A stretch of DNA of 32,000 bases from Prochlorococcus marinus str. NATL2A (GTDB lineage Bacteria > Cyanobacteriota > Cyanobacteriia > PCC-6307 > Cyanobiaceae): contig NC_007335.2 of assembly GCF_000012465.1 (NCBI RefSeq), positions 1,440,001 through 1,472,000 of the forward strand, in the 5' to 3' direction. The translations under genes were made by a program, and so were the position numbers. Numbering within the stretch: the stretch's first letter is position 1; the number at the start of each line of letters is the position of its first letter. Of this stretch, positions 3,346 to 22,931 are shown one piece after another. Below the pieces are notes generated by a model. It saw only the letters and a program-made list of their open reading frames with translations, was not told the DNA's origin and ran no database searches.

Positions 3346-3531
3346 CTATTTATTTTTAGTTTCTTCAAATAATCCAAAAAAAGTCCATGCAATTAATGAA
3401 ACAAGTCCAAACACCAAAGATAAGATAGCAAAAATAAATTCCCCTAAAAAAAGAACTGCAATAGCTATTGTTATGAAAATCAAAGAAAAAATTAAATAAA
3501 TATTCGGAGGGATTTTTTTTAGATACTCCAT
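3346..3531 (-). CDS. small membrane protein (2 TM), hypothetical
   Basis: 61 aa, ATG start, almost entirely hydrophobic. Confidence 0.5.
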   Translation of the reverse strand: MEYLKKIPPNIYLIFSLIFITIAIAVLFLGEFIFAILSLVFGLVSLIAWTFFGLFEETKNK

Positions 3532-3556
3532 AATTAACCTGTAAAAAACATCTTTA

Positions 3557-4319: not shown

Positions 4320-6245
4320 TTACTTTGCTGACTCAGACAACTCACTTAGCTCAATCCATCTATCCTCATACTCTTGAATAGATTCAATTAGTTCTGCTAA
4401 TTGATGACTAATTTCACTAATGTCTACATCATTATCAGTGATCTTTTTTTCTAAATATATTTTCTTTTTTTCTAACATAGGTAGTCTCAGATCTAATTCT
4501 TTTAATTCTCTAGCTTCTTTAAAACTCAATCGTCTAGGATCATTTTTAGAAACTAATTTTATTTCTTGTCCACGCTTATTTTTTGAATTATTGACTATTT
4601 TGGCTCGTTCTTTTGTTTCATTGTTTCGCTCCTCTAATATTTTATGATCAAGAAATCGAGAGTAATTTCCTTCATATCTTCGCAAGTAACCGTTTTCAAA
4701 ATTAAAAATTCGATCAATAGTACGATCAAGAAAATATCTATCATGCGATACAACTACGACACAACCTTTAAAATCATCAAGAAAATCTTCTAGCACACTT
4801 AGTGTTTGTATATCTAAATCATTTGTAGGCTCATCAAGCAATAATACGTTGGGAGCTTGTATGAGCATTTTGCATAGAGCAAGTCTTCTTTTTTCTCCCC
4901 CTGAAAGTTTTTGCAGAGGACTATGTTGTTGACTGGGTGGAAAGAGGAATTTTTCTAAGAGTTGTGATGCTGTAATTTGTTTCCCTCCATGATCAATTCG
5001 TAATGCAGCCTCCTCCACAAAATCGATAACTTTGCGGTTTAAGCCACTCCCTTGATTTAAGTCATTTGTATGTTGATCTAAGTAGCCAATATGAACCGTT
5101 TCTCCAAGTTTTATTTTCCCACTTGTAGGCAATCTTTTACCCGAAATTAGATCTAAAAGAGTGGATTTACCACTGCCATTTGGACCAATAATTCCTACTC
5201 GGTCCTCTGGACTAAAGCTATAAGTAAAATCACATAAAAGATCCAAGTTATTCTCTTTATTGTTGAGCGATAGCCCTACACCTTCAGCCTCAATTGCGAT
5301 TTTTCCAATTCTTCTACTTAATGAATTCATTTCTAAATTAGCTTTGACATGACTTTTAGGTTTCGCTTGCATTTCAGCAATCCGTTGAATACGTGCTTTT
5401 TGTTTTGTACTTCTTGCTTTGGGACCCTGTCTTAACCAAGCTAATTCCTTTCTTAAAACACCCTGAAACTTTTTCTTTGTAGATGCCTCTGATTGCTCTT
5501 GTTCAACTTTTTGTTGAAGAAATTCACGATAATTGCCCGAATACTTGCGAGTTTCTCCATTGTTAATTTCGACCATCCGGTTGGTAATGCGATCAAGAAC
5601 ATATCTATCGTGAGTTATTAAGACCAGCGCACCCTTATAATGGTCTAACCAATTTTGAAGCCATTCCACTGCAGATGCATCTAGGTGGTTAGTAGGTTCA
5701 TCAAGAAGTAAGACATCTGGATTAGAGACAAGCGCAGCGGCAAGTCCCACTCTTTTGCGATAACCACCAGAAAGCTCTTTTACTGGTTTATCTAAGTCTT
5801 TTATACCTAATCTTCTTAGAACATCTTGGCATTGTTGTTCTAAATTCCATGCCTCAGCGGCATCCATAAGTTCACTCGCCTGACCTAGTTTTTTCAAAAG
5901 GTCTTCATCTTCTGGATTTTGAGCGATTTTTCTACTTAGCTGACTGAAATTAAGTAATAATTTTCTTTTTTCTCCACACCCTTCAAGAACTTCTTCCAAA
6001 ACACTTTTTTCACTGTTGTAACTTGTTTCTTGCCCAACTAAAGATATCCGCAAAGATGGTAAACATCTTCTTTCTCCTTCCATCAAAGGTTCTATTCCTG
6101 CAATGACTCTCAAAAGTGTTGACTTGCCAGATCCATTTGGACCAATCAAACCAAGTCTCTCTTTTTTATTTACATGAAGATCTAAATTTTTAAAAAGATT
6201 TTTTATTCCAAAGTCTGTAGAAGCATTAACAAGACTAATCAACAC
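4320..6245 (-). CDS. ABC-F family ATPase (two ABC cassettes, Uup/EttA-like, no TM domain)
   Basis: Two Walker A motifs (GPNGSGKST twice), two signature motifs (LSGGYRKR, LSGGEKRR), two Walker B motifs (LLLDEPTN twice), and a charged coiled-coil C-terminal tail. The start is GTG at 6245 or TTG at 6242. Confidence 0.95.
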   Translation of the reverse strand: MLISLVNASTDFGIKNLFKNLDLHVNKKERLGLIGPNGSGKSTLLRVIAGIEPLMEGERRCLPSLRISLVGQETSYNSEKSVLEEVLEGCGEKRKLLLNFSQLSRKIAQNPEDEDLLKKLGQASELMDAAEAWNLEQQCQDVLRRLGIKDLDKPVKELSGGYRKRVGLAAALVSNPDVLLLDEPTNHLDASAVEWLQNWLDHYKGALVLITHDRYVLDRITNRMVEINNGETRKYSGNYREFLQQKVEQEQSEASTKKKFQGVLRKELAWLRQGPKARSTKQKARIQRIAEMQAKPKSHVKANLEMNSLSRRIGKIAIEAEGVGLSLNNKENNLDLLCDFTYSFSPEDRVGIIGPNGSGKSTLLDLISGKRLPTSGKIKLGETVHIGYLDQHTNDLNQGSGLNRKVIDFVEEAALRIDHGGKQITASQLLEKFLFPPSQQHSPLQKLSGGEKRRLALCKMLIQAPNVLLLDEPTNDLDIQTLSVLEDFLDDFKGCVVVVSHDRYFLDRTIDRIFNFENGYLRRYEGNYSRFLDHKILEERNNETKERAKIVNNSKNKRGQEIKLVSKNDPRRLSFKEARELKELDLRLPMLEKKKIYLEKKITDNDVDISEISHQLAELIESIQEYEDRWIELSELSESAK

Positions 6246-7931: not shown

Positions 7932-8211
7932 AAAGAATCTTTGTCTTTATATTTAGAAAAGTTCCTAAACTTTTTCAGGCCTCATATTCATTAACAGGAA
8001 TTGATCTAGTTGATCTCAGTTTATTCATTTCAACAGAAAGACAAATGTTCCATCTTTAGAAATTGATTTAAACTCACACAAATACGCTAAGAAGTTTCAG
8101 CGGGCTTTATTTGTGTGATCACAACTTTCAATTAAGAAAAAGCAAAAGATTTTCTTTAATTGCCTAGAAAATACAATAAAGAAATAGGGGTGAGAATGTA
8201 ATCCATCCACA

Positions 8212-8273
8212 CATTGCAATATCGCTAAGAACCCATGGCATTAAAGGAAATCAACTACTGGCTAATGAAAAGT
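8212..8273 (+). repeat. diverged partial copy (A) of the EVE-gene promoter-proximal region plus first 13 codons
   Basis: ATGGCATTAAAGGAAATCAACTACTGGCTAATGAAAAGT (MALKEINYWLMKS, then TAA) versus ATGGCACCAAAAGAGATTAACTATTGGCTAATGAAGAGT at 15091 (MAPKEINYWLMKS). By my count 32 of 39 nt are identical, and the differences are mostly third-position. The upstream CATTGCA..TCGCT..CCC also aligns. Confidence 0.7.
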
Positions 8274-8316
8274 TAAACTTGTTTGACTGACTGATATTTG
8301 ACCGAATTGCTATTAT

Positions 8317-8355
8317 TTATCCAAACTTTATCCAAACTTTCTAGATCCTCCCATG
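8317..8355 (+). repeat. diverged partial copy (B) of the region upstream of the EVE gene
   Basis: TTATCCAAACTTTATCCAAACTTT...TCCCATG versus TTATTCAAACTTTATTCAAACATT...ATCCCATG at 15048-15093. Confidence 0.55.
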
Positions 8356-8365
8356 CCAGTAATGA

Positions 8366-8719
8366 GGGATAAAGCGAAGGTTCTTAACGGGAGAGGGACA
8401 GAGAACTGATTACAAAGCGATAGAAAAAGCTCTTGCTCCATCATTCGTACATAGCTATGACGCAGGCGTCCTTAAGTCATCTTTCCAGGATTGGCATCAA
8501 CCAATCGCTCTAATTCACGATTGATTGAAGGTTCTTCCTAACCATATGGACAAAGCAAAACAAAGGGTCAAACATGGATTTGTTCAGGTTTACAGAGGCA
8601 ATCCATTGGCTCGCTTAGCTGATGAGATGGAAGTATCATCGGAGCAATTACCACGTCTCACGCAGGGTTCTGGAGACCTCTCAGCCGTGCTTGAATCGTC
8701 TTCGTATATGTTTAATTAG
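8366..8719 (+). pseudogene. C-terminal fragment (about 117 codons) of a T7-type single-subunit RNA polymerase
   Basis: The translation is ...KAIEKALAPSFVHSYDAGVLKSSFQDWHQPIALIHD*LKVLPNHMDKAKQRVKHGFVQVY...GDLSAVLESSSYMFN. It aligns with my recollection of T7 RNAP: GIAPNFVHSQDGSHLR...FALIHDSFGTIPADAANLFKAVRETMVDTY...LRDILESDFAFA. There is an in-frame TGA at 8522-8524, and the N-terminal 85 percent of the gene is absent. G+C is visibly higher than the flanks. Confidence 0.75.
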
Positions 8720-8961
8720 AAGCTACTCTCATTGACTTGTCCTTTCTTAATCATCAATAAAGAGATTAGTTCTAAATATTTTTCTGTGATTTAATTTGAT
8801 CATTTTTATATAACTATTTATTCGCCTTTTGAAGCCTAGAACTTATACATATATGCGAAGGCATTGGGATACTTCTCTTCAAATTTTACCCGTTTTTGTA
8901 TGTTAATGTTAGGAAGCGATGTCTTTATATCTATTGGTTTTAGTTGGAATTTGAGAAGAGA

Positions 8962-9375
8962 TTACGACTTAGATAAATAGTTATTATATGATTTTTCTTC
9001 AACCAGATCTGAATTATACTTCTGATTGATTTCTTTTTTTATAGAAGCTCTCTTATCATTTTCTTTGTAAACTGATCTAGCGAGTTGAATAAATTCTTTA
9101 TCAAATTCTTGATTGCTCTCTTTTATCCTAATATTATCTTCTATTTCCCAAAGGTTATTGTTTATTTCTTTGAGATTATTAATTAAATCGATCTCAATTT
9201 CTAGATTTACATCTTGAACTATTTTTCTTAGTAGTTTTAGCTCTTTATCTATATTTTTTAGCTTTTTTCCAGTCATATGTATTTGTTTAATTTCTAGAAT
9301 CGTGATTTTATCAATTAGTTCTCCTAGAGAGACTGGAGCAAGGATAGAAGATAAGTGTTTAATCTTTGAACTCAT
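8962..9375 (-). CDS. small coiled-coil protein of unknown function, third gene of the GT operon
   Basis: 137 aa. Its ATG overlaps the methyltransferase stop (ATGA at 9375-9372). The pattern ELIDKITILEIK...NLWEIEDNIR...FIQLARSVYKENDKRASIKKEIN resembles a conserved DUF often found next to glycosyltransferases. I cannot confirm the family. Confidence 0.75.
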   Translation of the reverse strand: MSSKIKHLSSILAPVSLGELIDKITILEIKQIHMTGKKLKNIDKELKLLRKIVQDVNLEIEIDLINNLKEINNNLWEIEDNIRIKESNQEFDKEFIQLARSVYKENDKRASIKKEINQKYNSDLVEEKSYNNYLSKS

Positions 9376-9962
9376 ACTTTTCCTCCTGCTTCTTCATTAC
9401 TATTTTTAATTACTTCAAGTGACATGTCATATTGTTCAATTAAATTATTATAAATATTAGACTCTTGCTGGAGTAATCTAACATCAACATTTTTATCTGG
9501 ATGTATTCTAAACCAGTCTTCACTTGGCTTTATAACTGTTTGCTTAAGTTCAAAATTGATATCTAGATATAATCCAAGTGGACTATTAGCGGCTCCTTGC
9601 TCTACCCATAGCTTGTTTAGTCTTTGAGAAAATAATTGTAAACCTAGAGGGGTAACAACTCTCACATGAGTTGGATCATCATAGAAGAATTCATGTCTAA
9701 AATGAGGTACAATTATTTTAATTTTTGCTCCATGATTACATATTCGGTACATCTCTTTAAATATTCCAAAGTATATTTCCACGTCTTTACCTAGGTGTTC
9801 AAGAACATGTATTAATACAATTTCTGAAACTGAATTTGTCTCCCAAGGCCAAGGGAAAGATTCTAAGTCATGTTTTATATCTGGGCTCCCATATTTATCT
9901 ACATTAATATAACCTGGAAATCTTTTTTCACCGCATCCAAGATTTAATTTAAGCCCATTCAT
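9372..9962 (-). CDS. class I SAM-dependent methyltransferase
   Basis: LNLGCGEKRFPGYINVD (motif I) ... VSEIVLIHVLEHLG (motif II/III region). 196 aa. Confidence 0.85.
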   Translation of the reverse strand: MNGLKLNLGCGEKRFPGYINVDKYGSPDIKHDLESFPWPWETNSVSEIVLIHVLEHLGKDVEIYFGIFKEMYRICNHGAKIKIIVPHFRHEFFYDDPTHVRVVTPLGLQLFSQRLNKLWVEQGAANSPLGLYLDINFELKQTVIKPSEDWFRIHPDKNVDVRLLQQESNIYNNLIEQYDMSLEVIKNSNEEAGGKV

Positions 9963-10019
9963 TTGGTAAATTCTTCATGACATATTTTTTCATGATAAGC
10001 CTCTATTGATTTTTTGCTT

Positions 10020-11933
10020 TTATATTTGTTCTTCTAATTTCTTTTTTAGTTTACTTGATACTCTTTCCATAACCTCTTGCCAATTATGTCGCTCTTTTTG
10101 ACGAAATAATCTCATCGATGGGTACCAAAATGTATTCTCCCTTTCAAGTCCCCACCTCCATTCAGGAATATGTTGAAGGAGTAACCAGGTTGATTTGCCT
10201 AATCCTCCAGCTAGGTGAGCAATTGAAGTGTCAGAAGTAATAATTAAATCACAGTTTTCAATTATGGCAGCATTTTCAAGAAAATCCCAAGTCTCATCAA
10301 TTTGAGCTTGGCCGTTAACAAACTTATTTCTGAAAGAGCATTTTTCAAGTTGCTCTGAACCAAAACCTTTTTGTAGTGAAAGAAATTTAAAGTTATTGTT
10401 CCTAGCAAGAGTGGCAAAGGTTTCTAAAGCTAGTGAGCGACCTTTTAGTTCTTCCTTTTCGACATTTGGATTCCCTTGCCAGTTAATACCAATGATTGGT
10501 CTTTTTTCTTCAGAGAGTATATCCCTCCACTTCTTCGTTAGTTCATCTGTTGAAAAGATATATGGTTTGGAAATGATTGGATTTTTTTGACGTACTTGTA
10601 GATATCTAGGTAAAGATAATAGTGGTATCCATTTACCGTCTGAAATTGTCTCAGCTTGTTCTGGAGTTAATGGATTTTGATCAATCCCTGAGGCTTGGAT
10701 CAATGAATGTAGTTTTGTTTGAGCACAAAAAGAAATATTGAGTCCTTGATTTCTAAGGTAAGGAATATATCTCATATATTGAAGGGTATCTCCTAAACCT
10801 TGCTCAGTGACGACTAATAGCTTTTCTCCTTTTTGTAATTTTTTGTGCTCGATTCGTTTGAGTTTTGTAATACATTGAGTAATAGTAGGCTTCTTTTTTT
10901 TGAATCTAAATTCATAGTTTTCTAAACCATTTATATAGTCACCTTGAAGTAGTTCAACTAATGAAAGATTCCAAAATGCTTCTGCGTAATCAGGTTTAAT
11001 TTCAATCGCTTTGCGATATGACATTTCTGCTTCTTGTAAGTTTCCAAGTTCTCTCAATAAGTTTCCCAGATTGGAATGAGCCTCTGCGTAATCAGGTTTA
11101 ATTTCAATCGCTTTGCGATATGACATTTCTGCTTCTTGTAAATTTCCAAGTTCTTTCAATAAGTTTCCCAGATTGTAATGAGCCTCTGCGAAAGTAGGAT
11201 TGAGTTCAATCGCTTTGCGATATGACATTTCTGCTTCTTGTAAGTTTCCAAGTTCTCTCAATAAGTTTCCCAGATTGGAATGAGCCTTTGCGTAATCAGG
11301 TTTGATTCCAATTGCTTTGAGGTATGACAATTCTGCTTCTTTTAACTTGCCATTATCTTTCAACAAGTTTCCCAGATTGTAATGAGCCTTTGCGTAATCA
11401 GGTTTGATTTCAATTGCTTTGCGGTATGAGATTTCTGCTTCTTTTAACTTGCCAAGATCTTTTAATATATTTCCCAAATTATAATATGCTTCTGCGTAAT
11501 TAGGTTTGATTTCAATTGCTTTACGTAATGAGATTTCTGCTTCTTTTAACTTGTCAAGATCTCTTAATATATTTCCTAGATTGGAATGCATCTCTGCGAA
11601 ATCAGGTTTGATTTCAATTGCTTTTTGAGTAGATAATTCTGCTTCTTTTAATTTCCCAAGACTTTTTAAAATTATTCCATAATTAGAAAAAATTCTGTGA
11701 TCATTAAAACCTTGATTGATTAAATATTGATAATATTTTGCTGCTTCTGAAATGTTTCCTTGTGAATGAAACTTAAATGCTTGATTAATGATTTCTTCTT
11801 TAGAAGGTTTAGAAGGAGTGTTAGTGAAAATAGAAATATTCTCTTTTATTTCTTCTAAAGCAAATGAAACGGGGAATGTTTTTATATCAGTGAATTGATT
11901 CTTTCTTTGTTCTTGTTTATCTGATTTTTCCAT
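10020..11933 (-). CDS. TPR-repeat protein fused to a GT9-like (heptosyltransferase-fold) glycosyltransferase domain
   Basis: About 10 consecutive 34-aa TPR units (A..Y.KAIEIKPDYAEA..NLGN) occupy aa 55-330. The C-terminal part has LLVVTEQGLGDTLQYMRYIPYL and LIITSDTSIAHLAGGLGKSTWLLL, typical of GT9 family members. Confidence 0.9.
   Translation of the reverse strand: MEKSDKQEQRKNQFTDIKTFPVSFALEEIKENISIFTNTPSKPSKEEIINQAFKFHSQGNISEAAKYYQYLINQGFNDHRIFSNYGIILKSLGKLKEAELSTQKAIEIKPDFAEMHSNLGNILRDLDKLKEAEISLRKAIEIKPNYAEAYYNLGNILKDLGKLKEAEISYRKAIEIKPDYAKAHYNLGNLLKDNGKLKEAELSYLKAIGIKPDYAKAHSNLGNLLRELGNLQEAEMSYRKAIELNPTFAEAHYNLGNLLKELGNLQEAEMSYRKAIEIKPDYAEAHSNLGNLLRELGNLQEAEMSYRKAIEIKPDYAEAFWNLSLVELLQGDYINGLENYEFRFKKKKPTITQCITKLKRIEHKKLQKGEKLLVVTEQGLGDTLQYMRYIPYLRNQGLNISFCAQTKLHSLIQASGIDQNPLTPEQAETISDGKWIPLLSLPRYLQVRQKNPIISKPYIFSTDELTKKWRDILSEEKRPIIGINWQGNPNVEKEELKGRSLALETFATLARNNNFKFLSLQKGFGSEQLEKCSFRNKFVNGQAQIDETWDFLENAAIIENCDLIITSDTSIAHLAGGLGKSTWLLLQHIPEWRWGLERENTFWYPSMRLFRQKERHNWQEVMERVSSKLKKKLEEQI
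10982..11695. repeat. in-phase tandem 102-bp repeats (TPR units), three of them near-identical
   Basis: Units start at 10982, 11084, 11186, 11288, 11390, 11492 and 11594. Units 1 and 2 differ at 3 of 102 positions by my count. Unit 3 matches unit 1 over its last 80 nt. Confidence 0.9.
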
Positions 11934-12233
11934 AAATTTTATTCCTATAAAAGAAACAGTAAAAAACGTACGTAGTTATTTCCTTTCTAAGTGATCAAGA
12001 TCTATTAAAGATTTTTTCTTAAAGGTTTGCGACTACAACGCCTCAAATACTGCTTTAGCTATTGATTCATAACTCGCCATTATTATAGAGAAGGAAGCAT
12101 TTACACTTTCTCACTCGATTGGCATCGTGAATAAAGAAAATAGAAACTAGATATCGCAGCTGAAGCTTCAGTTGATAAGTTGGAGTTCAAATTATTTAAA
12201 ATCAATGACCAAATAACTTCCTCACTTGAATCT

Positions 12234-12461
12234 TCATGAGTTGTGAACTGCATTTTCAGTTGAATCTTTTGTGATTTGGACCTTGCCTGTCTCTAAGATA
12301 TCAGTTCCAGGAATGCCTTTAGCTACTGATCCAATCAAAGTCGTATGAGCTTCTGGATCTTTCTTTAAAGTTGTGACGCCAAGATCATTTTTTGAAATTA
12401 ATATGAAAATAATTATCCCAATAAATGTCAAGATAATTGCTAGAGCTAATGAGGATTCCAT
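12234..12461 (-). CDS. small N-terminally anchored membrane protein, hypothetical
   Basis: 75 aa, ATG start, one N-terminal TM helix. A 9-bp inverted repeat (12157-12174) lies downstream. Confidence 0.45.
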   Translation of the reverse strand: MESSLALAIILTFIGIIIFILISKNDLGVTTLKKDPEAHTTLIGSVAKGIPGTDILETGKVQITKDSTENAVHNS

Positions 12462-12689
12462 AAGCAGTTTTTTTTAGTCTTATTAAATTAAGATAAAAGT
12501 TAAAATCTATATACAAAAAGGAACTAACTAGGATCACTATTTATTCAAAGAACTTTGTAAATTTTTACTATTTTGAAGTAAAAAAATTACATGGAGGTTT
12601 GAAGTATAAAAGGAACTTCCATCTCGTAAAATAAATCGACATGCAAAACAATAATTAATAGATAATTTACAAACATTCAACTCCAATAA

Positions 12690-12974
12690 ATGCCTGAAGA
12701 TACTTTAAATGCAAGCAACCCTGAGACAGAAAATCATCATTGGTTTCCCTTCCTAAGATTTAAGAAAGAATGCGAAGCGGCAGGTAAGGAAGTCAGTGTG
12801 AATGAATGGATGAGAGAAACAGGAAAACTAAAGGAAAAGATAGCTCATGAAGAATCAGTTGCATTAGCAGCAAAAATAGCTTCTGAAAAAGAAGCAGATG
12901 CAACACAAGAAATCGAAAAAGAAGCTCTAAAGAAAAAGAAAGAAATAGAAAGTGAGCTCAATACAAAACCATAA
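12690..12974 (+). CDS. hypothetical K/E-rich protein
   Basis: 94 aa, ATG start, charged helical C-terminal half, no motif recognised. Confidence 0.4.
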   Translation: MPEDTLNASNPETENHHWFPFLRFKKECEAAGKEVSVNEWMRETGKLKEKIAHEESVALAAKIASEKEADATQEIEKEALKKKKEIESELNTKP

Positions 12975-13008
12975 ATCAGAATAATGACAACTAAATCAAA
13001 AAGTAGAG

Positions 13009-13157
13009 AATAATTACTACAACCTTGTTTGTCCAATGAGAAGTGCATGGGATCTTAATAAATTATTGCCTCTTCAAAACTTTATGTAATTGATAATGCA
13101 GGACACTCAATGAAAGAGATTGGGATGCCTAAAAAATTAATTGATTTGACGAATTAG
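13009..13157 (+). pseudogene. C-terminal remnant of a proline iminopeptidase-type alpha/beta hydrolase, with 1-nt frameshift
   Basis: Frame 1 gives NNYYNLVCPMRSAWDLNKLLPLQN. A shift at about 13081-13082 leads to frame 3, YVIDNAGHSMKEIGMPKKLIDLTN*. This matches the PIP C-terminus pattern GRYDxxCPxxxAWDLxKxxPxAxLxIVxxAGHSxxEPGIxxxLxxATDxF, including the catalytic His. Confidence 0.6.
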
Positions 13158-13275
13158 CTAGCTAATTCCTCTTCTAATCTCTAATTTTCTGTAGCTGTTA
13201 TTTGATCTAAATAATATTTATTAAATTCTACAATCATTAGCATTTCAAGGATATTTTTTAATTCCCATCATTAAT

Positions 13276-13500
13276 TTAATCTTGCTTGTTCTTTTGATTC
13301 ATATCGCTAAAAGCTTTTACTGGGAACTTTTTACCCTGTCTCCATATGGCTGTTATTATTAAAGCTATGAAGGCAATGATGGGTATAAATCTCAGGATTT
13401 CCATCGTGGAAGGTTCGACAACTAAAGCTTTAAAAGGATCACTAAGAGATACTGGAACGACTTCGTATGAATTTACTAGTTCATTTAGATCTACTTGCAT
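13276..13500 (-). CDS. small single-TM protein, hypothetical
   Basis: 74 aa, ATG start, TM helix ILRFIPIIAFIALIITAIW. Confidence 0.45.
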   Translation of the reverse strand: MQVDLNELVNSYEVVPVSLSDPFKALVVEPSTMEILRFIPIIAFIALIITAIWRQGKKFPVKAFSDMNQKNKQD

Positions 13501-13700
13501 TTTCCTAGAAAGTTATTTTTAACTCTATAGATAAATCTGCATATTTTCTTATGACTCATTCGTTTGTGATCCGTATGTATAAAATTTACCTATAAAAGTA
13601 AATAACGTTAATCCTTTTGGTGATCTAAGTTGATTCTCTTTACAAGAAAAAAATTAAACAGAATATAGTTAAAAATAAAACTACTTCGACTTCTAATCCA

Positions 13701-13814
13701 ATGTTTTTTGCATTATCGTCTTCTCAACTAGGAGTGAGTTCGTTGACTATCAATCTAATACTCATTACTTCAGTAATAGTTCTATTAGCATTGCCTACTT
13801 TATTTCTTCTTTGA
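13701..13814 (+). CDS. 37-aa hydrophobic peptide (below ORF-track cutoff)
   Basis: My own translation: MFFALSSSQLGVSSLTINLILITSVIVLLALPTLFLL. Confidence 0.25.
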   Translation: MFFALSSSQLGVSSLTINLILITSVIVLLALPTLFLL

Positions 13815-13857
13815 TCAGGCAAAGGCAAATCAGCATTTTAAAATGCCCGAAAACTAT

Positions 13858-14217
13858 TCAAGAAGGATGAAACTTTTTATATAATTGATTTTCTGATAAT
13901 TCAATCCCAAAACATACAATATTATCAAAGTCGCCATTCTTATGCATAATTGTCATGTTATCTTTAATTTCTTGGCTATCAAATATTAATCCAAATTCAC
14001 TACAATATTTAAACAATATATTCATCGCAGCCTCATGATTAGTAAGGAATTCCTCGCAAAGGTCTGACAATTTTTCCTTATTTAAACTATTTATCATTTT
14101 TTGAAAATCATTAAAATTGCTCATTTGATCTTCTAGAAGTCGAAGTAAACTATTCATAACTTTTTTATATATTCTCGTCATGACAAATATTGCTATTGCA
14201 AGTAATAAAATACTCAT
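13858..14217 (-). CDS. N-terminally anchored hypothetical protein
   Basis: 119 aa, ATG start, N-terminal TM helix then a helical soluble domain. Confidence 0.5.
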   Translation of the reverse strand: MSILLLAIAIFVMTRIYKKVMNSLLRLLEDQMSNFNDFQKMINSLNKEKLSDLCEEFLTNHEAAMNILFKYCSEFGLIFDSQEIKDNMTIMHKNGDFDNIVCFGIELSENQLYKKFHPS

Positions 14218-14446
14218 CAGAGTGTAACTTTATCAAGAACCTAGTCACCAATACAACTCTCATCTATGGCTTGAATCCAAAGTCAAGCTAAAAAACTTTT
14301 TATTTATACAGAGTATTAAAAGAAATGAATTCATGTTTTTCTAGCAAGTATCAATTAAGACTAAGTTGTGTATATATTAATAGTATGTATTTCTAGGAAA
14401 AGAAAGTAAAATTTATTAATAATAAAATTAAACATTAACTATCAAT

Positions 14447-14575
14447 ATGAATAAAGATCTAAGTCAAATGACAATTGAAAATGATGTTACCCAAGCTAAT
14501 TATTCAACACTATTCAAAGGGATTTGGACAGGTATTTTAATCTCCTTAATAGTGCATCAGTTTATCAATCATTAA
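14447..14575 (+). CDS. 42-aa peptide with C-terminal TM helix (below ORF-track cutoff)
   Basis: My own translation: MNKDLSQMTIENDVTQANYSTLFKGIWTGILISLIVHQFINH. Confidence 0.25.
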   Translation: MNKDLSQMTIENDVTQANYSTLFKGIWTGILISLIVHQFINH

Positions 14576-14610
14576 ATCCTTTAATTCTATTATGCGATAT
14601 ATATCAGAAT

Positions 14611-14886
14611 TTAATCACCAAATCGATAATGCTTACGAACAGCCTTATGAACATCCCATCTACAGTCCATTCCTGCTGGGAAGACAACTAAGTCACCTGC
14701 GCCAAACTTCACAGGTTCTCCTCCATCAGGAGTCACAGTCACTTCGCCCGCAAGTAATAAGCAAGTCTCTTGATCTTCATAAGTCCAGTTAAAAGAACTT
14801 ACATCACAAGTCCATATCGGCCAATTTTTGGTTACTAATTCCTGAATCGTAGTTTCAGTACAAGGAGAAGTAACTAATATCGACAC
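14611..14886 (-). CDS. cupin domain protein (DUF861 / cupin_3 type)
   Basis: WPIWTCDVSSFNWTYEDQETCLLLAGEVTVTPDGGEPVKFGAGDLVVFPAGMDCRWDVHKAVRKHY matches the cupin_3 pattern. GTG start at 14886. Confidence 0.85.
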   Translation of the reverse strand: MSILVTSPCTETTIQELVTKNWPIWTCDVSSFNWTYEDQETCLLLAGEVTVTPDGGEPVKFGAGDLVVFPAGMDCRWDVHKAVRKHYRFGD

Positions 14887-15047
14887 GGAATAGTAGACAT
14901 AGAGACTTCTTTATAGCTGATTATGAAAGCAGTTGTATTTGCTTCTTCAATTTTCGACAGAATTCTTTGAAGTCGAATTGCAAACAGGGCTAGAACATAA
15001 TCTCCCCATAGGGGATAATGTTTAGAGCTAATCAAAAAGATCAAAAG

Positions 15048-15129
15048 TTATTCAAACTTTATTCAAACATTGCATCTTCGCTGACATCCCATGGCACCAA
15101 AAGAGATTAACTATTGGCTAATGAAGAGT
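15048..15129 (+). repeat. intact counterpart of repeats A and B (EVE gene upstream region plus first 13 codons)
   Basis: See features 8212..8273 and 8317..8355. Includes the 11-nt-periodic direct repeat TTATTCAAACT / TTATTCAAACA. Confidence 0.7.
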
Positions 15130-15564
15130 GAGCCAGATGCTTACAGTATTAAAGATTTAGAAAAAGAAGAAGAAACTCTCTGGGATGGAATTCGAAATTA
15201 TCAGGCTAGAAACTTTATGAGGTCAATGGAAATTGGTGATCAAGCTTTTTTTTATCATTCGAATACTAAACCACCTGGAATAGTTGGTCTGATGGAAATT
15301 ATTGAAAAAAACTTAATCGACCCTTTTCAGTTTGATGAAAGCTCAAAGTATTTTGACAAAAAATCAAAAAGAGATAACCCTCGTTGGGATTGCGTGAAAA
15401 CTAAATATATCTGTGAATTTAAAAGTATGATTACTTTAAAGGACCTATCTGAAACTTATACGTCTGAAGAACTCACTCTAGTTCGTAAAGGGAACAGGCT
15501 ATCAATTATGCCAATTAATAAAGATATCGCTTTAGAGCTTCTCAAAAAGCTCAAGAAAAATTAA
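15091..15564 (+). CDS. EVE domain (PUA-like) protein
   Basis: YWLMKSEPDAYSIKDLEKEEETLWDGIRNYQARNFMRSMEIGDQAFFYHSN is the typical EVE/DUF55 N-terminus. 157 aa. Confidence 0.9.
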   Translation: MAPKEINYWLMKSEPDAYSIKDLEKEEETLWDGIRNYQARNFMRSMEIGDQAFFYHSNTKPPGIVGLMEIIEKNLIDPFQFDESSKYFDKKSKRDNPRWDCVKTKYICEFKSMITLKDLSETYTSEELTLVRKGNRLSIMPINKDIALELLKKLKKN

Positions 15565-15565
15565 T

Positions 15566-15829
15566 TCAAAAAGAATGAGATCCAAACATATTGCCAATAT
15601 AAAGACGTGTTATCAATCTGGATCTGATGCCATTTTGAATTAGAAACCCTGCAAGCGCAGCTTGTAAAAGCCTGTATTGATCCCATTGGGGGTGTTTCTC
15701 AATGTAAACGTTCATCGCTTGTTGAATTTGCTTTGGTATTTCTGTTTGAAAACTAATTGTATCCTCAGATTCCAAAACATCCGAACTTTGAATCAAGCTT
15801 TTATCTTCCTTAAAATCAATATTTTTCAT
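15566..15829 (-). CDS. cyanobacterial DUF2811-like protein
   Basis: The C-terminal HPQWDQYRLLQAALAGFLIQNG motif is characteristic of this cyanobacteria-specific family, as I recall it. Confidence 0.7.
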   Translation of the reverse strand: MKNIDFKEDKSLIQSSDVLESEDTISFQTEIPKQIQQAMNVYIEKHPQWDQYRLLQAALAGFLIQNGIRSRLITRLYIGNMFGSHSF

Positions 15830-16132
15830 TTAAAAAGCTCTTAGAAAATTTAATCCATCATCAAACTACTATCAAAATCAGATCTGTAAAAAACACTTTC
15901 TCGGGCAGTCTCATTCTCAGATCAAGTACTCAACTGCTTTCCAAAAGAAGTTATAAGAATTACTTATTATTGGTATTAGACTTATTTGATAGGCAAATTT
16001 AAGTTATCAACCTCAGCTCTTTTCCACATTTAGCAGTTGTAACTTCATTAATCGAATTGATCCTGTGGAAAAGCTGTGAGATGAATCCAGTTAGATTTGG
16101 GGAAAAGTTGAAAAACTTTTAGTTAAGTTCTC

Positions 16133-16513
16133 TCACAAATAGTCTGAATCCCACATTGATCTCATTGCATTCACAACATTGTTAGTCACATGTCTAGGCC
16201 AATAGACCTCTGCTCCTCGATTAAACAGACCACTAGCACTCAAGATCAACCTGAGATTCCATCCATATTGATCACCATTCAAAATTGCCAACCAAGGCCT
16301 ACGTTCTAATTCCAAAGTTATATCCTCATCGCCCATTAATTGTTCCTTCACTAATTTGTATTGATCACACAATTCCATTACTACCTCAACTAAAATTTTC
16401 CATTCAGATTTATCCAACTCTATTGCCCATGTTTCCCCTCCTATAAGCGTAGAAAAGTTATCTCTTGAGGAATCAAAAATTATTCTCCAACCCGGACCTT
16501 CTTTTTTGATCAC
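16133..16513 (-). CDS. DUF1818-like protein, co-transcribed with rpoZ
   Basis: GTG start immediately after the rpoZ TAG. GPGWRIIFDS...GGETWAIELDKSEW...RPWLAI is typical of the cyanobacterial family found downstream of rpoZ. Confidence 0.7.
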   Translation of the reverse strand: MIKKEGPGWRIIFDSSRDNFSTLIGGETWAIELDKSEWKILVEVVMELCDQYKLVKEQLMGDEDITLELERRPWLAILNGDQYGWNLRLILSASGLFNRGAEVYWPRHVTNNVVNAMRSMWDSDYL

Positions 16514-16747
16514 CTAACCAGGTAATAAATCAGGTTGATCTTGTTCATCACTTAGTTCAATTATGGCTCTTTGTACTGGCTTAACTGTGGATTCTTCTAA
16601 AAGTCCATCAAAATCGTCAAATCTCCTTTGCTTTGCTCTAAAAGCAATCCTCACAGTAGTGAGGTAGCGATTAGTGGAGTGTCTGATGAGACTCTCGCCT
16701 CTTTTTGCTAAATCGTTGGAATTCAATCCTGAACCTGACTTGATCAC
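16514..16747 (-). CDS. rpoZ: DNA-directed RNA polymerase omega subunit
   Basis: [22 protein letters not shown]...[10 protein letters not shown] matches the cyanobacterial RpoZ core. GTG start. Confidence 0.85.
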
Positions 16748-16891
16748 ACTTAAAACTTTATTGATACTTTATTCTAGGAGAGAATCGTTCATTTCTATAT
16801 TTTTCATCAAATAATAAGTGTGATGTTAGTTTTTCTAGACTAACTTGTTACTGTTTGATTTTTGTTGCACCTATAAAAATGCACTAAAAAG

Positions 16892-18517
16892 ATGGAAAAA
16901 AATAACATTGATCAATTCGAAAACATCCTTCGACCTGAAATCAATAAAAATGTTTTTGGAACATTAGCCATCGATTTAGGAAGTTCAACAACAGTTGTTG
17001 TTTTTCAAAAAGAAAATGGGCAGCCTCCTGAACTTTTAGATCTACCTCCAATTAGTCGAGCGATTGGAGAGATACCAAGTTTAATTTGGAAGTCATCAGA
17101 AAAAGAAGAATCTTATTTAATTGGTCAACAAATTATAGATTTAAATCTCATTAATGAAAAAGAAAATAACTTAAGTCAAGATTTTAAAAGATGGATAGGA
17201 TCTAAGGAAATTGAACCTATATATGATTCAAAAATAACCCCAGAAAAAGCAGGTGAGATTTTAATTCACAGTATTTGGAATAAAGTCTCGCAGAAGGTCA
17301 ACATCAAAAGACTAGTATTAACTGCTCCAGTAGATACATATCGAGAATATAGAACTTGGTTAGTCAATGTATGTAATTCCTTAGAAGTAAAAGAAATTGC
17401 TTTAGTTGATGAACCCACTGCTGCTGCAATGGGAGCTGGACTGGAGCCTGGATCAACATTACTTGTTTTAGATTTTGGAGGAAGCACAATTGATATGTCA
17501 ATTGTTGCTTTAGAGGGAGGAGAAGGACAAGCTTCACCAATTGCACAGCTTGTTAGATTTGATGGCAATAATTTAGAGGGAAAAAGTACACAAGTTCTTC
17601 GCACCGCAAAAGTTCTAGGGAAATCAGGGCTTCGGTTAGGGGGGAAAGATATAGATAGATGGATAATTCATCATTTATTACCAGAAGAAAATCCAACCTA
17701 TTCAATCTTGCAAAAGGCCGAGGAGCTTAAATGTGAATTAAGCAATACTAATATAAAAGAGACATTGATTATCACTAAAAAAGTAAAAAATATTCAGAAT
17801 GAAGAAAAGTTTTTAAAATTATCTAAAAAAGGTCTTGAAGAATTACTTATAGAAAAAGGACTCCTAAAAAGTATTGAAAAGCTTTTCATTCAAACAATTA
17901 ATATCGCGAAACGAAATTCATTTGAATTAAAAGATCTTGATAGCGTTGTATTAGTCGGAGGAGGATCTCGCATACCTTTGATTAAAAATTATTTAAGTGA
18001 TATCTGTAATTCCATCCCTTTTTTGACCCCTCCACCTATAGAAGCAATTGCATTGGGAGCATTACACCTCACGCCGGGTGTTCAAATAAAAGATGTTCTT
18101 AACAAAGGGGTAAGTTTAAGATGCTGGAATAAAAAAAATGAAAAGCATATATGGCATCCTCTTTTTCTAGCAGGTCAGACATGGCCAACAAATAAGCCTT
18201 TAGAAATAATTTTAGCTGCAAGTATAAATAATCAATTAAGCATAGATTTAATCATTGGAGAACCTCAAGAAGAAGGGTCAAATGAGATTATTTATACTAA
18301 TGGATTACCCACTTTAACAACAATAGAATCCAAGGATAAAATCAAAAAAATAAATAATACTATTATTTCAATCCCTGTGGATCCTCCTGGTGAAATTGGT
18401 CAAGATTGTATTAAATTAATTTTTAATATTAATGATAATTGTCAACTTGAGGTTGAGGGTGTCGATTTACGTAATGATAAAGAGATAACAAAACAAAATC
18501 TTGGAGAGATAAGATAA
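16892..18517 (+). CDS. Hsp70-family ATPase lacking the helical lid (DnaK-like paralogue)
   Basis: Three nucleotide-binding motifs are present: AIDLGSSTTVV, LDFGGSTIDMSIV and VLVGGGSRIPLIK. A beta-sandwich-like C-terminal 145 aa follows. There is no lid or EEVD tail. Confidence 0.9.
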   Translation: MEKNNIDQFENILRPEINKNVFGTLAIDLGSSTTVVVFQKENGQPPELLDLPPISRAIGEIPSLIWKSSEKEESYLIGQQIIDLNLINEKENNLSQDFKRWIGSKEIEPIYDSKITPEKAGEILIHSIWNKVSQKVNIKRLVLTAPVDTYREYRTWLVNVCNSLEVKEIALVDEPTAAAMGAGLEPGSTLLVLDFGGSTIDMSIVALEGGEGQASPIAQLVRFDGNNLEGKSTQVLRTAKVLGKSGLRLGGKDIDRWIIHHLLPEENPTYSILQKAEELKCELSNTNIKETLIITKKVKNIQNEEKFLKLSKKGLEELLIEKGLLKSIEKLFIQTINIAKRNSFELKDLDSVVLVGGGSRIPLIKNYLSDICNSIPFLTPPPIEAIALGALHLTPGVQIKDVLNKGVSLRCWNKKNEKHIWHPLFLAGQTWPTNKPLEIILAASINNQLSIDLIIGEPQEEGSNEIIYTNGLPTLTTIESKDKIKKINNTIISIPVDPPGEIGQDCIKLIFNINDNCQLEVEGVDLRNDKEITKQNLGEIR

Positions 18518-18535
18518 TTTTTTATATTTTTTATC

Positions 18536-19090
18536 TTAATCATTCATAGTTTTCAAACAAAAGATATCCTCTTTACCATCAACTTCTCTCAATCTAAGAT
18601 CAATTATTTCATCTTTCATAGTTGGTGCTTTATTCCTACAAAACTCAGGTTGAATTCGAATGTCTCGGTGCTCCTATCTACCATAGAAAGAAGCGTAAAA
18701 CTTCTTTCCCATATCACATGAATATAGAGCTTCTAATGTAGCTTTGATCGTTTTTCTGTGAATATAACATCATCAATTAAGACGATCTCTCTATCATCAA
18801 CTCAACAGGGTAACTCAGTCACTTGAGCAAAGCGAGTGCCTATCCTCGCAAGATTAAATATGAGAAGTAGGATCTAAACAACCATTCTCAATTGGCCCAC
18901 CAGAAAGTTCCTCTAAATATTTTGCTAATAATTTATACAAATAAACTCCCCCTGCTTGGTATTCCAATAAGCAAAAAAGAACTAATATTTGCAATGTTTT
19001 CCAAGATTTGAGAAGCCAATCTTTTTATGGTTCTCTCAAGTTCTTTTTTTGAGAGGATTTCTATTTCTTTTTTATGGCTTCGTCTGACAT
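18536..19090 (-). pseudogene. pyrR: pyrR (pyrimidine operon regulator / uracil phosphoribosyltransferase) pseudogene
   Basis: Stitching the frames gives MSDEAIKK/EIEILSKKELERTIKRLASQILEN...LLIGIPSRG/VYLYKLLAKYLEELSGGPIENGCLDPT.../VDDREIVLIDDVIFT/KTIKATLEAL...GR*EHRDIRIQPEFCRNKAPTMKDEIIDLRLREVD. This is collinear with B. subtilis PyrR. It contains at least 3 homopolymer frameshifts and 2 in-frame stops. The track shows no ORF over 60 aa here. Confidence 0.8.
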
Positions 19091-19206
19091 TTTTAAAGTC
19101 ATAAAATTTTATTTTTTCTTTGGAATAGCTGCAATAATTTTTTAATCTAATAGGGAAAAGCTAACCAAACATCAAAGTATTAGCCTCTTTGCCAATTAGG
19201 AAGTAA

Positions 19207-20877
<1,671 letters not shown>

Positions 20878-20886
20878 ATAAAATCA

Positions 20887-21117
20887 ATGATCATTCCTTT
20901 TTTATCATGGATATGGGCAATTTCAGGAGTTTTTCTAATACTATTAGTTCTTCTTCACAGCCCAAAAGGTGATGGAATGGGTGGTCTAGCCTCCAGTGGC
21001 AGCTCAATGTTCACTAGTGCCAGCAGTGCAGAATCTACCTTAAATAGAGCCACTTGGGCATGTCTTATTTTATTTTTATCCCTTGCTGTTATTATTAGCG
21101 CAGGATGGTTAAAATAA
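20887..21117 (+). CDS. secG: preprotein translocase subunit SecG
   Basis: 76 aa with two TM helices flanking LLHSPKGDGMGG...S, typical of SecG. Confidence 0.9.
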   Translation: MIIPFLSWIWAISGVFLILLVLLHSPKGDGMGGLASSGSSMFTSASSAESTLNRATWACLILFLSLAVIISAGWLK

Positions 21118-21222
21118 ATTTATAAAAATTATTTTTTTTTGCAACCTTAATCAATAGTTTTATTTAGCTAACTTTAAAGAATTACATTAATAATTAAATA
21201 TTATATGTATAAGTTTTCAATC

Positions 21223-21260
21223 AAAAAAGAGAGACTGTAAAGACAATCTCTCTTTTTTTT
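21223..21260. terminator. bidirectional rho-independent terminator between secG and groEL
   Basis: A6, then AGAGAGACTGT-aaag-ACAATCTCTCT (10 of 11 bp paired), then T7-8. Confidence 0.7.
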
Positions 21261-21284
21261 GTTTAATTGAAGGAGAATGATTAT

Positions 21285-22931
<1,647 letters not shown>

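Follow-up and report, generated by a model that had tools for sequence, protein, structure and literature searches.

The 5′ end of the EVE gene is the attachment site of a family of integrative elements in Prochlorococcus

dusA-specific islands encode a tyrosine integrase whose target is a short conserved sequence within the 5′ end of a protein-coding gene that is itself conserved. Their own sequence replaces the 5′ end and the promoter of that gene, and their cargo is highly diverse, with the integrase as the sole common gene (Farrugia et al. 2015, PMC4482086). The passage of PMC2791158 that cites Hochhut and Waldor 1999 describes site-specific integration of the SXT/R391 integrative and conjugative elements (ICEs) into prfC, at its 5′ end, by a tyrosine integrase. 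Prochlorococcus is one of the ocean's most abundant organisms, and its genomic islands hold most of its flexible genes. The published tycheposon model (Hackl et al., bioRxiv preprint 10.1101/2020.12.28.424599) ties these islands to seven transfer RNA (tRNA) or transfer-messenger RNA (tmRNA) genes, which are named as targets; several islands and hundreds of "cryptic" elements have no described target. The preprint also reports non-tRNA-associated tyrosine recombinases and 234 "cryptic_B" elements (YR_5, 7, 9, 1 and others); for most of these, no target has been described. Here we analysed a stretch of 32,000 nt from Prochlorococcus marinus str. NATL2A (hereafter, the window), in which an intact EVE gene is preceded, across a 6.9-kb segment, by a truncated copy of its own 5′ end. 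We conclude that a family of integrative elements uses the EVE start as its chromosomal attachment site, and that in several Prochlorococcus lineages (HLII, LLI, LLIII and LLVII) a variable genomic island is built there. The 6.9-kb segment is very probably the decayed remains of one or more mobile elements of this kind, which integrated at the EVE start via their own integrase and replaced the promoter and first codons of the gene. An earlier note on this DNA had proposed a decayed site-specific integration hotspot. The same picture emerges here from recurrent copies that end at the same core, from differing DNA in relatives and from intact elements with a tyrosine integrase after the copies.

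Truncated copies of the EVE start in the window and in other genomes

The gene at 15091–15564 matches the Pfam family EVE (E 2.6e-53). Its first codons and the DNA before them (15061–15129) form a gap-free direct repeat with 8205–8273, in which 54 of 69 nt are identical. The local alignment score of this repeat is 39. When 200 dinucleotide shuffles of the query were searched against the remainder of the window, the score was 15.6 ± 1.6 (maximum, 22). The repeat is thus about 14 standard deviations above shuffled sequence, and the similarity is significant. The earlier note had placed a second copy of the first 13 EVE codons at 8235–8273, with 32 of 39 nt identical and mostly synonymous third-position differences. 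Our recount gives the same values: 32 of 39 nt agree between the displaced copy (MALKEINYWLMKS, then TAA) and the intact gene (MAPKEINYWLMKS), five of the seven differences are synonymous at the third position, and the other two lie in one codon (TTA/CCA). The EVE similarity of the displaced copy stops after ...CTAATGAAAAGT, where the TAA follows. No tRNA or tmRNA gene was found within the window and the repeats are EVE 5′ ends; the target is a protein-coding gene and not a tRNA, as the note had stated. A second similarity links 8317–8340 with 15048–15071 (21 of 24 nt), and TTATYCAAAC is present twice in it. The exact units are TTTATCCAAAC, a perfect 11-nt repeat at 8316–8326 and 8327–8337, and TTATTCAAAC at 15048–15057 and 15059–15068.

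The closest intact relative of the window is the locus L094 (loci are given by our L numbers), an LLI single-cell genome (single-amplified genome, SAG; contig QCHX01000003) in which an integrase gene follows a partial copy. The features at the two ends of the segment are as follows.

7987–8176, no strand: conserved left flank, the last DNA common to relatives before the variable island (sequence comparison)
8169–8273, plus strand: displaced older EVE 5′ end, the chromosome-side half of attL (similarity to intact EVE starts)
8256–8273, plus strand: left-junction core TACTGGCTAATGAAAAGT (EVE similarity ends after 8273)
8274–8352, plus strand: left end of the element, the element-side half of attL, upstream of the integrase gene (L094 match)
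8316–8337, plus strand: left-arm tandem repeat, 2 x TTTATCCAAAC, 11-nt period, 57 nt past the core; proposed arm-type site
8353–8409, plus strand: integrase gene remnant MPVMRDKAKVLNGRGTEN, then a stop (start equals the L094 integrase)
8411–8719, plus strand: RNA polymerase gene (single-subunit, T7-like), last ~100 codons and an in-frame stop (L094 match)
14907–15090, plus strand: element-derived conserved right end with hairpin, GATAAT box, right-arm repeats and spacer to the EVE ATG
15048–15068, plus strand: right-arm tandem repeat, 2 x TTATTCAAAC, 11-nt period, 67 nt ahead of the core
15091–15564, plus strand: intact EVE gene (attR), with the core TATTGGCTAATGAAGAGT at 15112–15129 (Pfam)

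The displaced copy contains one CCATCCACACA unit (8203–8213), the ATG at 8235, the 13 codons and the TAA at 8274–8276. It is nearer to other LLI intact EVE 5′ regions: the identity is 84% to L089 9935–10039 and 81% to L091 9923–10038. In L090, it is 80% to the intact 5256–5371 and 83% to the displaced copy at 3425–3541. Beyond the core, window 8222–8401 is 87% identical to L094 9872–10049, which covers the end of the L094 partial copy, the left end of the element and the integrase start, and which continues into the intact integrase gene. The first 20 nt of the left end, TAAACTTGTTTGACTGACTG, are identical in L101. The first 16 residues encoded by the remnant (8353–8400) equal those of the L094 integrase P0127, which begins MPVMRDKAKVLNGRGTVFSY (alignment A1), and tblastx of window 8341–8400 against L094 9989–10048 gives 100%. 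These comparisons change two statements of the earlier note. It had reported no integrase; a full gene is indeed lacking, but the first 16 codons survive. It had also read 8317–8355 as a nested copy of the target, whereas this segment is the left-arm repeat, the ribosome-binding region and the integrase ATG, as in L094. The repeated integration that the note derived from that second copy is still likely, but on the ground that two types of arm repeat are present.

The conserved EVE codons were then looked for on either strand in all Prochlorococcus loci. Partial EVE 5′ copies number 25 in 14 genomes when the window is included (24 in the 13 others, which include the HLII, LLIII and LLVII clades). 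All 25 lie upstream of the intact gene and in its orientation, and in each of them the similarity to EVE ends at one and the same core, TAYTGGCTAATGAA. For example, there are three copies in MIT 9314, four in MIT 9211, three in the SAG HOT208_60m_808M21 (L008) and two in AG-363-C20 (L007). The layout is always a GATAAT-like box, two direct repeats of ~10 nt placed 11 nt apart, a spacer of ~25 nt, ATG, ~8 variable codons and TAYTGGCTAATGAA. Pairs of target copies in which the gene-proximal copy restores an intact EVE are found in the window, L088, L095, L090, L016 and others.

The versions of the EVE start swap displaced and intact roles between genomes, in agreement with the proposal in the note that incoming elements carry their own version. 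The displaced copy of the window (8169–8273) is 81–84% identical, over 105–117 nt, to the intact 5′ regions of L089, L090 and L091. Conversely, the intact 5′ region of the window (14907–15129) corresponds to the displaced copy in L101 (87%, 223 nt) and L094 (86%, 371 nt), and the displaced version of L095 is the intact 5′ end in L014 and L008. In L008 and L026, two HLII single cells from one sample, blocks are common at ~97% identity. A cassette of 2.6 kb that has copies at its borders and holds metallophosphoesterases and a CobW-like gene is distal to EVE in L026 and adjoins EVE in L008; it has either moved or been acquired in a different order in the two.

Two candidates were rejected. A "copy" ~4.56 kb downstream of EVE in high-light-type loci, including HLII (L004, L006, L010, L012, L014, L016, L022, L023 and L026), is without the ATG and repeat context and is probably a chance match in an iPGM-type gene. 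When the 20-mer TGGCTAATGAARAGTGAGCC was compared with viral contigs, the one match was a chance match inside an unrelated phage gene.

The integrase family and its 11-nt tandem repeats

Elements with an EVE 5′ fragment beside an integrase, for which the note had suggested a search, were found in Prochlorococcus genomes and in metagenome contigs. Intact integrase genes stand beside copies in L088, L092, L094 and L095. In L088 (CP114778.1), an open reading frame (ORF) of 529 aa begins 114 nt past the partial copy; cargo (photolyase, DoxX and small ORFs) and the repeat come next, with EVE 9.4 kb on. In L095, the order is integrase, 7 kb of small ORFs and EVE. MIT 9211 has three stacked copies, the integrase, TPR proteins, a DnaB-like ATPase (an element protein with a DnaB_C/AAA_25 match) and a further copy 11 kb on. 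Where both ends are visible, the elements are 4–11 kb in size, and the encoded tyrosine integrase is ~500–540 aa. Besides the integrase, no hallmark-type genes show in L088, L095 or the window. It should be mentioned that a complete minimal element of ~4.2 kb is seen in the metagenome locus L117 (FUFK010791266.1, 1–4748): a copy, GTTCACACA repeats, the integrase, three or four small ORFs and EVE.

The L088 integrase matches Pfam Phage_integrase (PF00589) with 29.2 bits (cutoff, 27.1) and the PHROG_1 integrase with 1e-17. In Prochlorococcus genomes and marine metagenomes, 236 protein clusters are related to the integrase (E <= 1e-10). Searching the PDB by sequence profile yielded no more than a marginal match, 3nrw (E 0.007), and therefore a search by fold was needed. 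The AlphaFold model of the L094 integrase (mean predicted local distance difference test score, 80.5) shows three predicted parts: an N-terminal domain built of four strands and one helix, then a helical and a catalytic domain. Foldseek ranks full-length lambda Int (1z1b_B, E 1.4e-7) first for this model; Cre, XerA, XerH and Tn1549 Int come next. In alignment A1 (n = 30), K377, R461 (in Y-S-x-R), the H after G483 and Y493 are conserved. As judged from the profile match and the predicted fold, the ORF family belongs to the tyrosine recombinases. tblastn of the integrase against 50,697 phage genomes gave no match, and a profile search of viral contigs gave one distant locus (35%), which is without the EVE core.

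The integrase genes are tied to the core. Integrase loci with 140 nt or more of upstream sequence number 47; in 34 of them, the core TAYTGGYTNATGAA lies upstream of the integrase start, at a distance of 81–130 nt (33 loci) or 209 nt (one locus). The 34 loci take in all but one of the integrases that are at least 43% identical to the L094 protein. None of the integrases with 42% identity or less has the core upstream; these may use other sites. Moreover, an identical integrase, P0144, with the same left arm is found behind three different displaced EVE versions (L095, L096 and L098). Thus, these are independent insertions, and the crossover lies within the ~14–15-bp core.

In each element, a pair of direct repeats (~10–11 nt, 11-nt period) is located ~65 nt before the core and a second pair 57–73 nt after it, just upstream of the integrase. 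Within an element, the repeat sequence is the same on both arms: TTACTCTAAC in L088, ATTCGAAC in L095 (the P0144 type) and ATCCACACA in MIT 9211. The L094-type repeat is TATCCAAAC, and at least ten types occur across the elements. When the repeat after one copy was compared with that before the next copy, 7 of 15 adjacent pairs were identical (8/8 nt) and 11 of 15 agreed in at least 7/8 nt. The observed total was reached by none of 20000 permutations, although the pairs may share descent and so are not fully independent. We compared repeats with protein sequence in 28 integrases of less than 90% mutual identity, with residues 1–70 taken as the N-terminal domain. Repeat similarity follows the identity of residues 1–70 when the rest of the protein is controlled (partial Mantel r 0.45, P 0.0002); with residues 1–70 controlled, there was no such relation to the rest of the protein (r 0.06, P 0.20). 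Because the repeat type tracks the N-terminal domain, the tandem repeats are probably arm-type sites read by that domain.

Alternatively, the 11-nt repeats may be operators or elements of the 5′ untranslated region (UTR) for a regulator of EVE and of the integrase gene, which would leave the integration model unchanged. Their position fits this idea, since they sit between the GATAAT-like box and the EVE start codon and again a short way upstream of where the integrase gene starts. The left-arm repeats are also abutted by a promoter-like site at 8287–8316 (CTGACT, 18 nt, TATTAT, with TG), though the scan that found it was not above chance; if it is real, the repeats would overlap the integrase promoter, which would suggest autoregulation. 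However, the repeat type varies between elements and follows specifically the N-terminal domain of the integrase, and this domain is predicted to be a small beta-sheet plus helix. Lambda-type arm-binding domains have the same layout, a small beta-sheet with a helix. We regard a purely regulatory role as rather unlikely, while the two roles could coexist, with Int binding its own promoter.

One further arrangement was seen in L026. At ~9930–9945, upstream of the intact EVE, there is one GTTTGGGTAAA, the reverse complement of the TTTACCCAAAC after the preceding partial copy. It is the sole inverted arm unit seen.

The variable island and its origin

Scanning with the EVE protein as query, in one genome per species, gave 13 Prochlorococcus loci together with Synechococcus and Cyanobium loci. 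In every picocyanobacterial locus that reaches past EVE, the downstream order is constant (DUF2811, DUF1818, RpoZ-like, Hsp70-like, iPGM and onward). Upstream of EVE, in contrast, the gene content is different in every locus. Thus, EVE is the fixed edge of a variable island. The order of ABC-F ATPase, DUF805 and small ORFs left of the island is common to L001, L089, L094 and L101, and the left flank (7987–8176) is 93% identical to L094 5571–5760 and 83% to L001 5752–5891. The earlier note had proposed that relatives be compared for the same 6.8 kb in the same order; the arrangements proved to differ. The window, L100 (GCA_047285495) and L101 (CP114781) have flanks of ~96% identity, three different islands and three EVE 5′ versions: the island is 6.9 kb in the window and 2.2 kb, without the TPR cassette, in L101, and it holds other genes in L100. 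L001 and L094 are collinear through an amino-acid ABC transporter, beyond which 311 nt lead to EVE in L001; because L001 has neither a partial copy nor an element, it represents the unoccupied state. The window itself has a G+C content of ~0.33, LLI-type genomes are among its close relatives, and 20473 of 20474 nt are identical in the Prochlorococcus assembly GCA_047285275.1 (contig JBJBDO010000002.1).

These observations would be explained by the following process. The excised element would consist of an 11-nt tandem repeat, ~25 nt, ATG and ~8 codons, the core TAYTGGCTAATGAA, ~45–60 nt, the same repeat and the integrase gene. Recombination inside the ~14–15-bp core (codons Y-W-L-M-K) would splice the element into the chromosome. 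Its promoter region, repeat and first codons would become the new EVE start, and the previous start would be displaced to the far (left) side and kept there in truncated form, with the integrase gene after it. Over repeated rounds, with deletions and possibly the re-mobilisation of cassettes, an island would be built. In the window, 8274–8409 would be the left end of an L094-like element, and 14907–15129 an element right end joined to EVE, its repeat type being slightly different. The first 13 codons of the EVE gene (15091–15564) and its upstream region are element-derived.

The left-arm and right-arm repeats of the window differ in one base per unit. Each type occurs beside an integrase of its own elsewhere, TTTATCCAAAC in L094 and TTATTCAAAC in L124, which has TTATTCAAAC on both sides of its core; the upstream DNA of L124 has no homology to the window outside the att region. 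Because there are two repeat types, each with its own integrase, and parts of the island are common to different relatives, repeated integration is likely. By these comparisons, the segment probably is the fused remains of at least two integrations. It can no longer move by itself.

The phage-type RNA polymerase fragment that the note had recognised was confirmed at 8411–8719. It has 56% amino-acid identity to L094 16236–16526, the end of an 815-aa gene matching PF00940. In the window, the 16 integrase codons meet this polymerase tail 10 bases later. When compared with the L094 layout, this corresponds to a deletion of ~6.2 kb, in which, by this comparison, a YadA-anchor gene was lost together with the remainder of the integrase gene and the greater part of the T7-like RNA polymerase gene. 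The full polymerase gene of L094 (14094–16541), carried in this case by a non-phage element, is followed by a 502-aa helix-turn-helix protein.

Inside the island, two groups of genes are present.

8962–11933, minus strand: cargo cassette with DUF6165 (8962–9375), a 196-aa ORF (9372–9962) and a 637-aa TPR protein (10020–11933) (Pfam)
13247–14886, minus strand: small ORFs 13276–13500 and 13858–14217 and a Cupin_3 gene, 14611–14886 (L101 match, Pfam)

The 196-aa ORF has a methyltransferase match below threshold only. The DUF6165 and TPR genes are in the opposite orientation relative to EVE in L100 and are absent from L101; L100 has the cassette only in part. At 10864–11775, the TPR gene contains seven tandem 102-nt (34-codon) units with 67–88% identity to the reference copy, and it is a TPR array with a recent internal duplication. 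Related TPR genes were found in the L100 and L090 islands. Pfam scans of the small ORFs at 12101–14691 gave no matches; a pip fragment (proline iminopeptidase), which the note had reported, was not found in the ORFs scanned. The Cupin_3 match has E 2.1e-29, and window 13247–21302 is 94.7% identical to L101. The island (8962–14886) thus appears as cargo of mixed origin, a mosaic with different parts common to different relatives. A hairpin (TCCCCATAGGGGA, 15003–15015; 5 bp, perfect and G+C-rich) lies between the divergent cupin and EVE genes, with TAATGT after it. It belongs to the right end of ~220 bp, a segment duplicated in L101 and L094, and it is present in both L101 copies. Promoter and terminator scans around both copies in the window gave nothing above chance except this short hairpin.

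Several points weigh against integration by these integrases as the origin of the segment. Tyrosine recombinases normally have TGxR at the first catalytic Arg. At this position (TGMSPEE, ~residue 303 of P0127), Ser is present in at least 90% of the 30 aligned sequences and Arg in none, so that integrase activity is assumed; another Arg (R322 or R382) may substitute, or the chemistry may be unusual. The excision product was not seen: among 80 metagenome loci, there was no circular contig, no proven attP and no contig with two cores. Of the 15 adjacent repeat pairs, three mismatch (5/8) and one more agrees in 6/8 only. The right arm of L117 is of the TTACTCAAAC type, like its displaced copy and unlike its own left arm. 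The two ends of the segment, to judge by their repeats, may come from different elements. On the metagenome contigs L106, L115, L118, L120, L124, L125, L129–L131 and L169, the same repeat type occurs upstream of the copy and beside the integrase; in genome-derived loci, the two are always of different types. The same-type contigs (~9) are ambiguous and may be excised attP forms or tandem insertions of the same type. No strictly empty site was found in a very close relative. L089, in which nadB is 110 bp from the intact EVE, was dropped as an empty site owing to a degenerate EVE-5′ copy upstream of nadB (SAG contig CACIYG010000002, 7960–8050). The nadB reading concerns a 585-aa gene (8134–9891; FAD_binding_2/Succ_DH_flav_C; L-aspartate oxidase); normally a core metabolic gene, it is bracketed like a cassette in L089 and stands at the far side of an 8-kb island in L091. 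Lastly, some exchanges look like short patches inside otherwise ~95% identical DNA, and homologous recombination or gene conversion between repeated ends fits them as well as integrase action does.

Such recombination could be taken as the whole explanation: a replacement island kept by homologous recombination in its flanks (EVE on the right, ABC-F/DUF805 on the left), with the partial copies as by-products of illegitimate or homologous events. Both flanks are conserved, the repeated ~220-bp right ends are possible substrates, and L101 and the window differ upstream of EVE only in a ~50–80-bp patch within the 94.7% stretch, as in gene conversion. However, this explanation does not account for 25 copies in one orientation, all truncated at the same 14–15-bp core, for an integrase gene 81–130 nt past the core in 33 loci and 209 nt in one, or for one integrase behind three displaced versions. 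We therefore consider it improbable; homologous recombination probably acts in addition to integration and not in its place. Hardly any credence can be given to a defective T7-like prophage, that is, a temperate podovirus integrated at EVE and decayed to the polymerase fragment: this C-terminal fragment and the full 815-aa gene in L094 speak for it, but the integrase has no match in the phage genomes searched, the polymerase is only ~26% identical to cyanopodovirus enzymes, elements with this integrase reach only 4–11 kb where both ends are visible, the cargo seen in these loci is non-phage (photolyase, DoxX, peptidase, TPR proteins and DnaB-like ATPase), and no capsid or terminase family was reported among the genes of the loci.

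Integration at the EVE start by the elements' own integrase thus remains our explanation of the island. A wider proposal, which we advance tentatively as a possibility, is that the EVE 5′ end is an integron-like, cassette-accumulating site inside a core gene. In a family of integrases with one 14-bp chromosomal core, swappable N-terminal domains would read their own 11-nt repeats (at least ten types, a possible compatibility code), integrase-less cassettes with EVE-5′ copies at their borders would be cut out and put back in trans by an incoming element of the same type, and each event would rewire the EVE promoter, 5′ UTR and N-terminus. If this is true, the host gene EVE could come under the control of the element (Int). 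The defined core, the identifiable integrase family and the simple arm repeats provide a handle for annotating this island and for finding elements in metagenomes. In addition, the system allows testing of how arm-site specificity evolves and whether integrase-less cassettes move in trans.

Comparison with known systems

Tycheposons and the EVE elements have the same host. In both, entry occurs at one proximal site, older material is pushed inward, partial target copies are left and the island grows; the integrase is at one end and faces inward. In contrast to tycheposons, the EVE elements target the 5′ end of a protein-coding gene, replace its promoter and N-terminus, and have arm repeats. 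Tycheposons are recognised by integration at an island tRNA or tmRNA gene with partial tRNA copies, whereas the repeats in the window are EVE 5′ ends. In other words, the 5′ end of a protein-coding gene plays a tRNA-like role in HLII, LLI, LLIII and LLVII genomes. EVE is not mentioned in the text or supplements of the preprint version of the tycheposon work (10.1101/2020.12.28.424599), and we found no paper in the open literature that joins Prochlorococcus, genomic islands and EVE. Nor did we find, in the open literature with the tycheposon work in preprint form, a description of the target, core or arm repeats of these elements. The EVE-site elements were probably counted previously among the "cryptic" ones.

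The EVE elements are like dusA islands in that they target the 5′ end of a gene, supply a new promoter and 5′ end, and carry diverse cargo. They differ in their target (EVE) and their hosts (picocyanobacteria), and the integrases are unrelated in sequence as far as tested. Furthermore, displaced copies pile up into arrays at EVE, and type-specific 11-nt repeats are present on both arms. Excision of dusA islands has been seen by the polymerase chain reaction; for the EVE elements, no excision product was seen among the 80 metagenome loci.

From SXT, prfC receives a new promoter and new 5′ coding sequence. SXT/R391 elements resemble the EVE elements in that a tyrosine integrase acts on the 5′ end of a conserved gene. 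SXT is ~100 kb, conjugative and has near-identical integrases. In contrast, the EVE elements are 4–11 kb where both ends are visible, no conjugation genes were seen in them, and their integrases (43–100% identity) and arm types are diverse.

Site-specific accretion and cis-mobilisable elements are known at ICE sites. The tandem arrays of integrase-less cassettes bounded by att copies at the EVE site can be likened to them. With lambda Int, the best structural match, the EVE-site integrase has in common a predicted three-part architecture (a small N-terminal, a core-binding and a catalytic part), and repeated sites flank the core on both arms. Unlike the arm sites of lambda, the putative arm sites at EVE are simple direct 11-nt tandem pairs, the types of which vary across a family with one chromosomal core.

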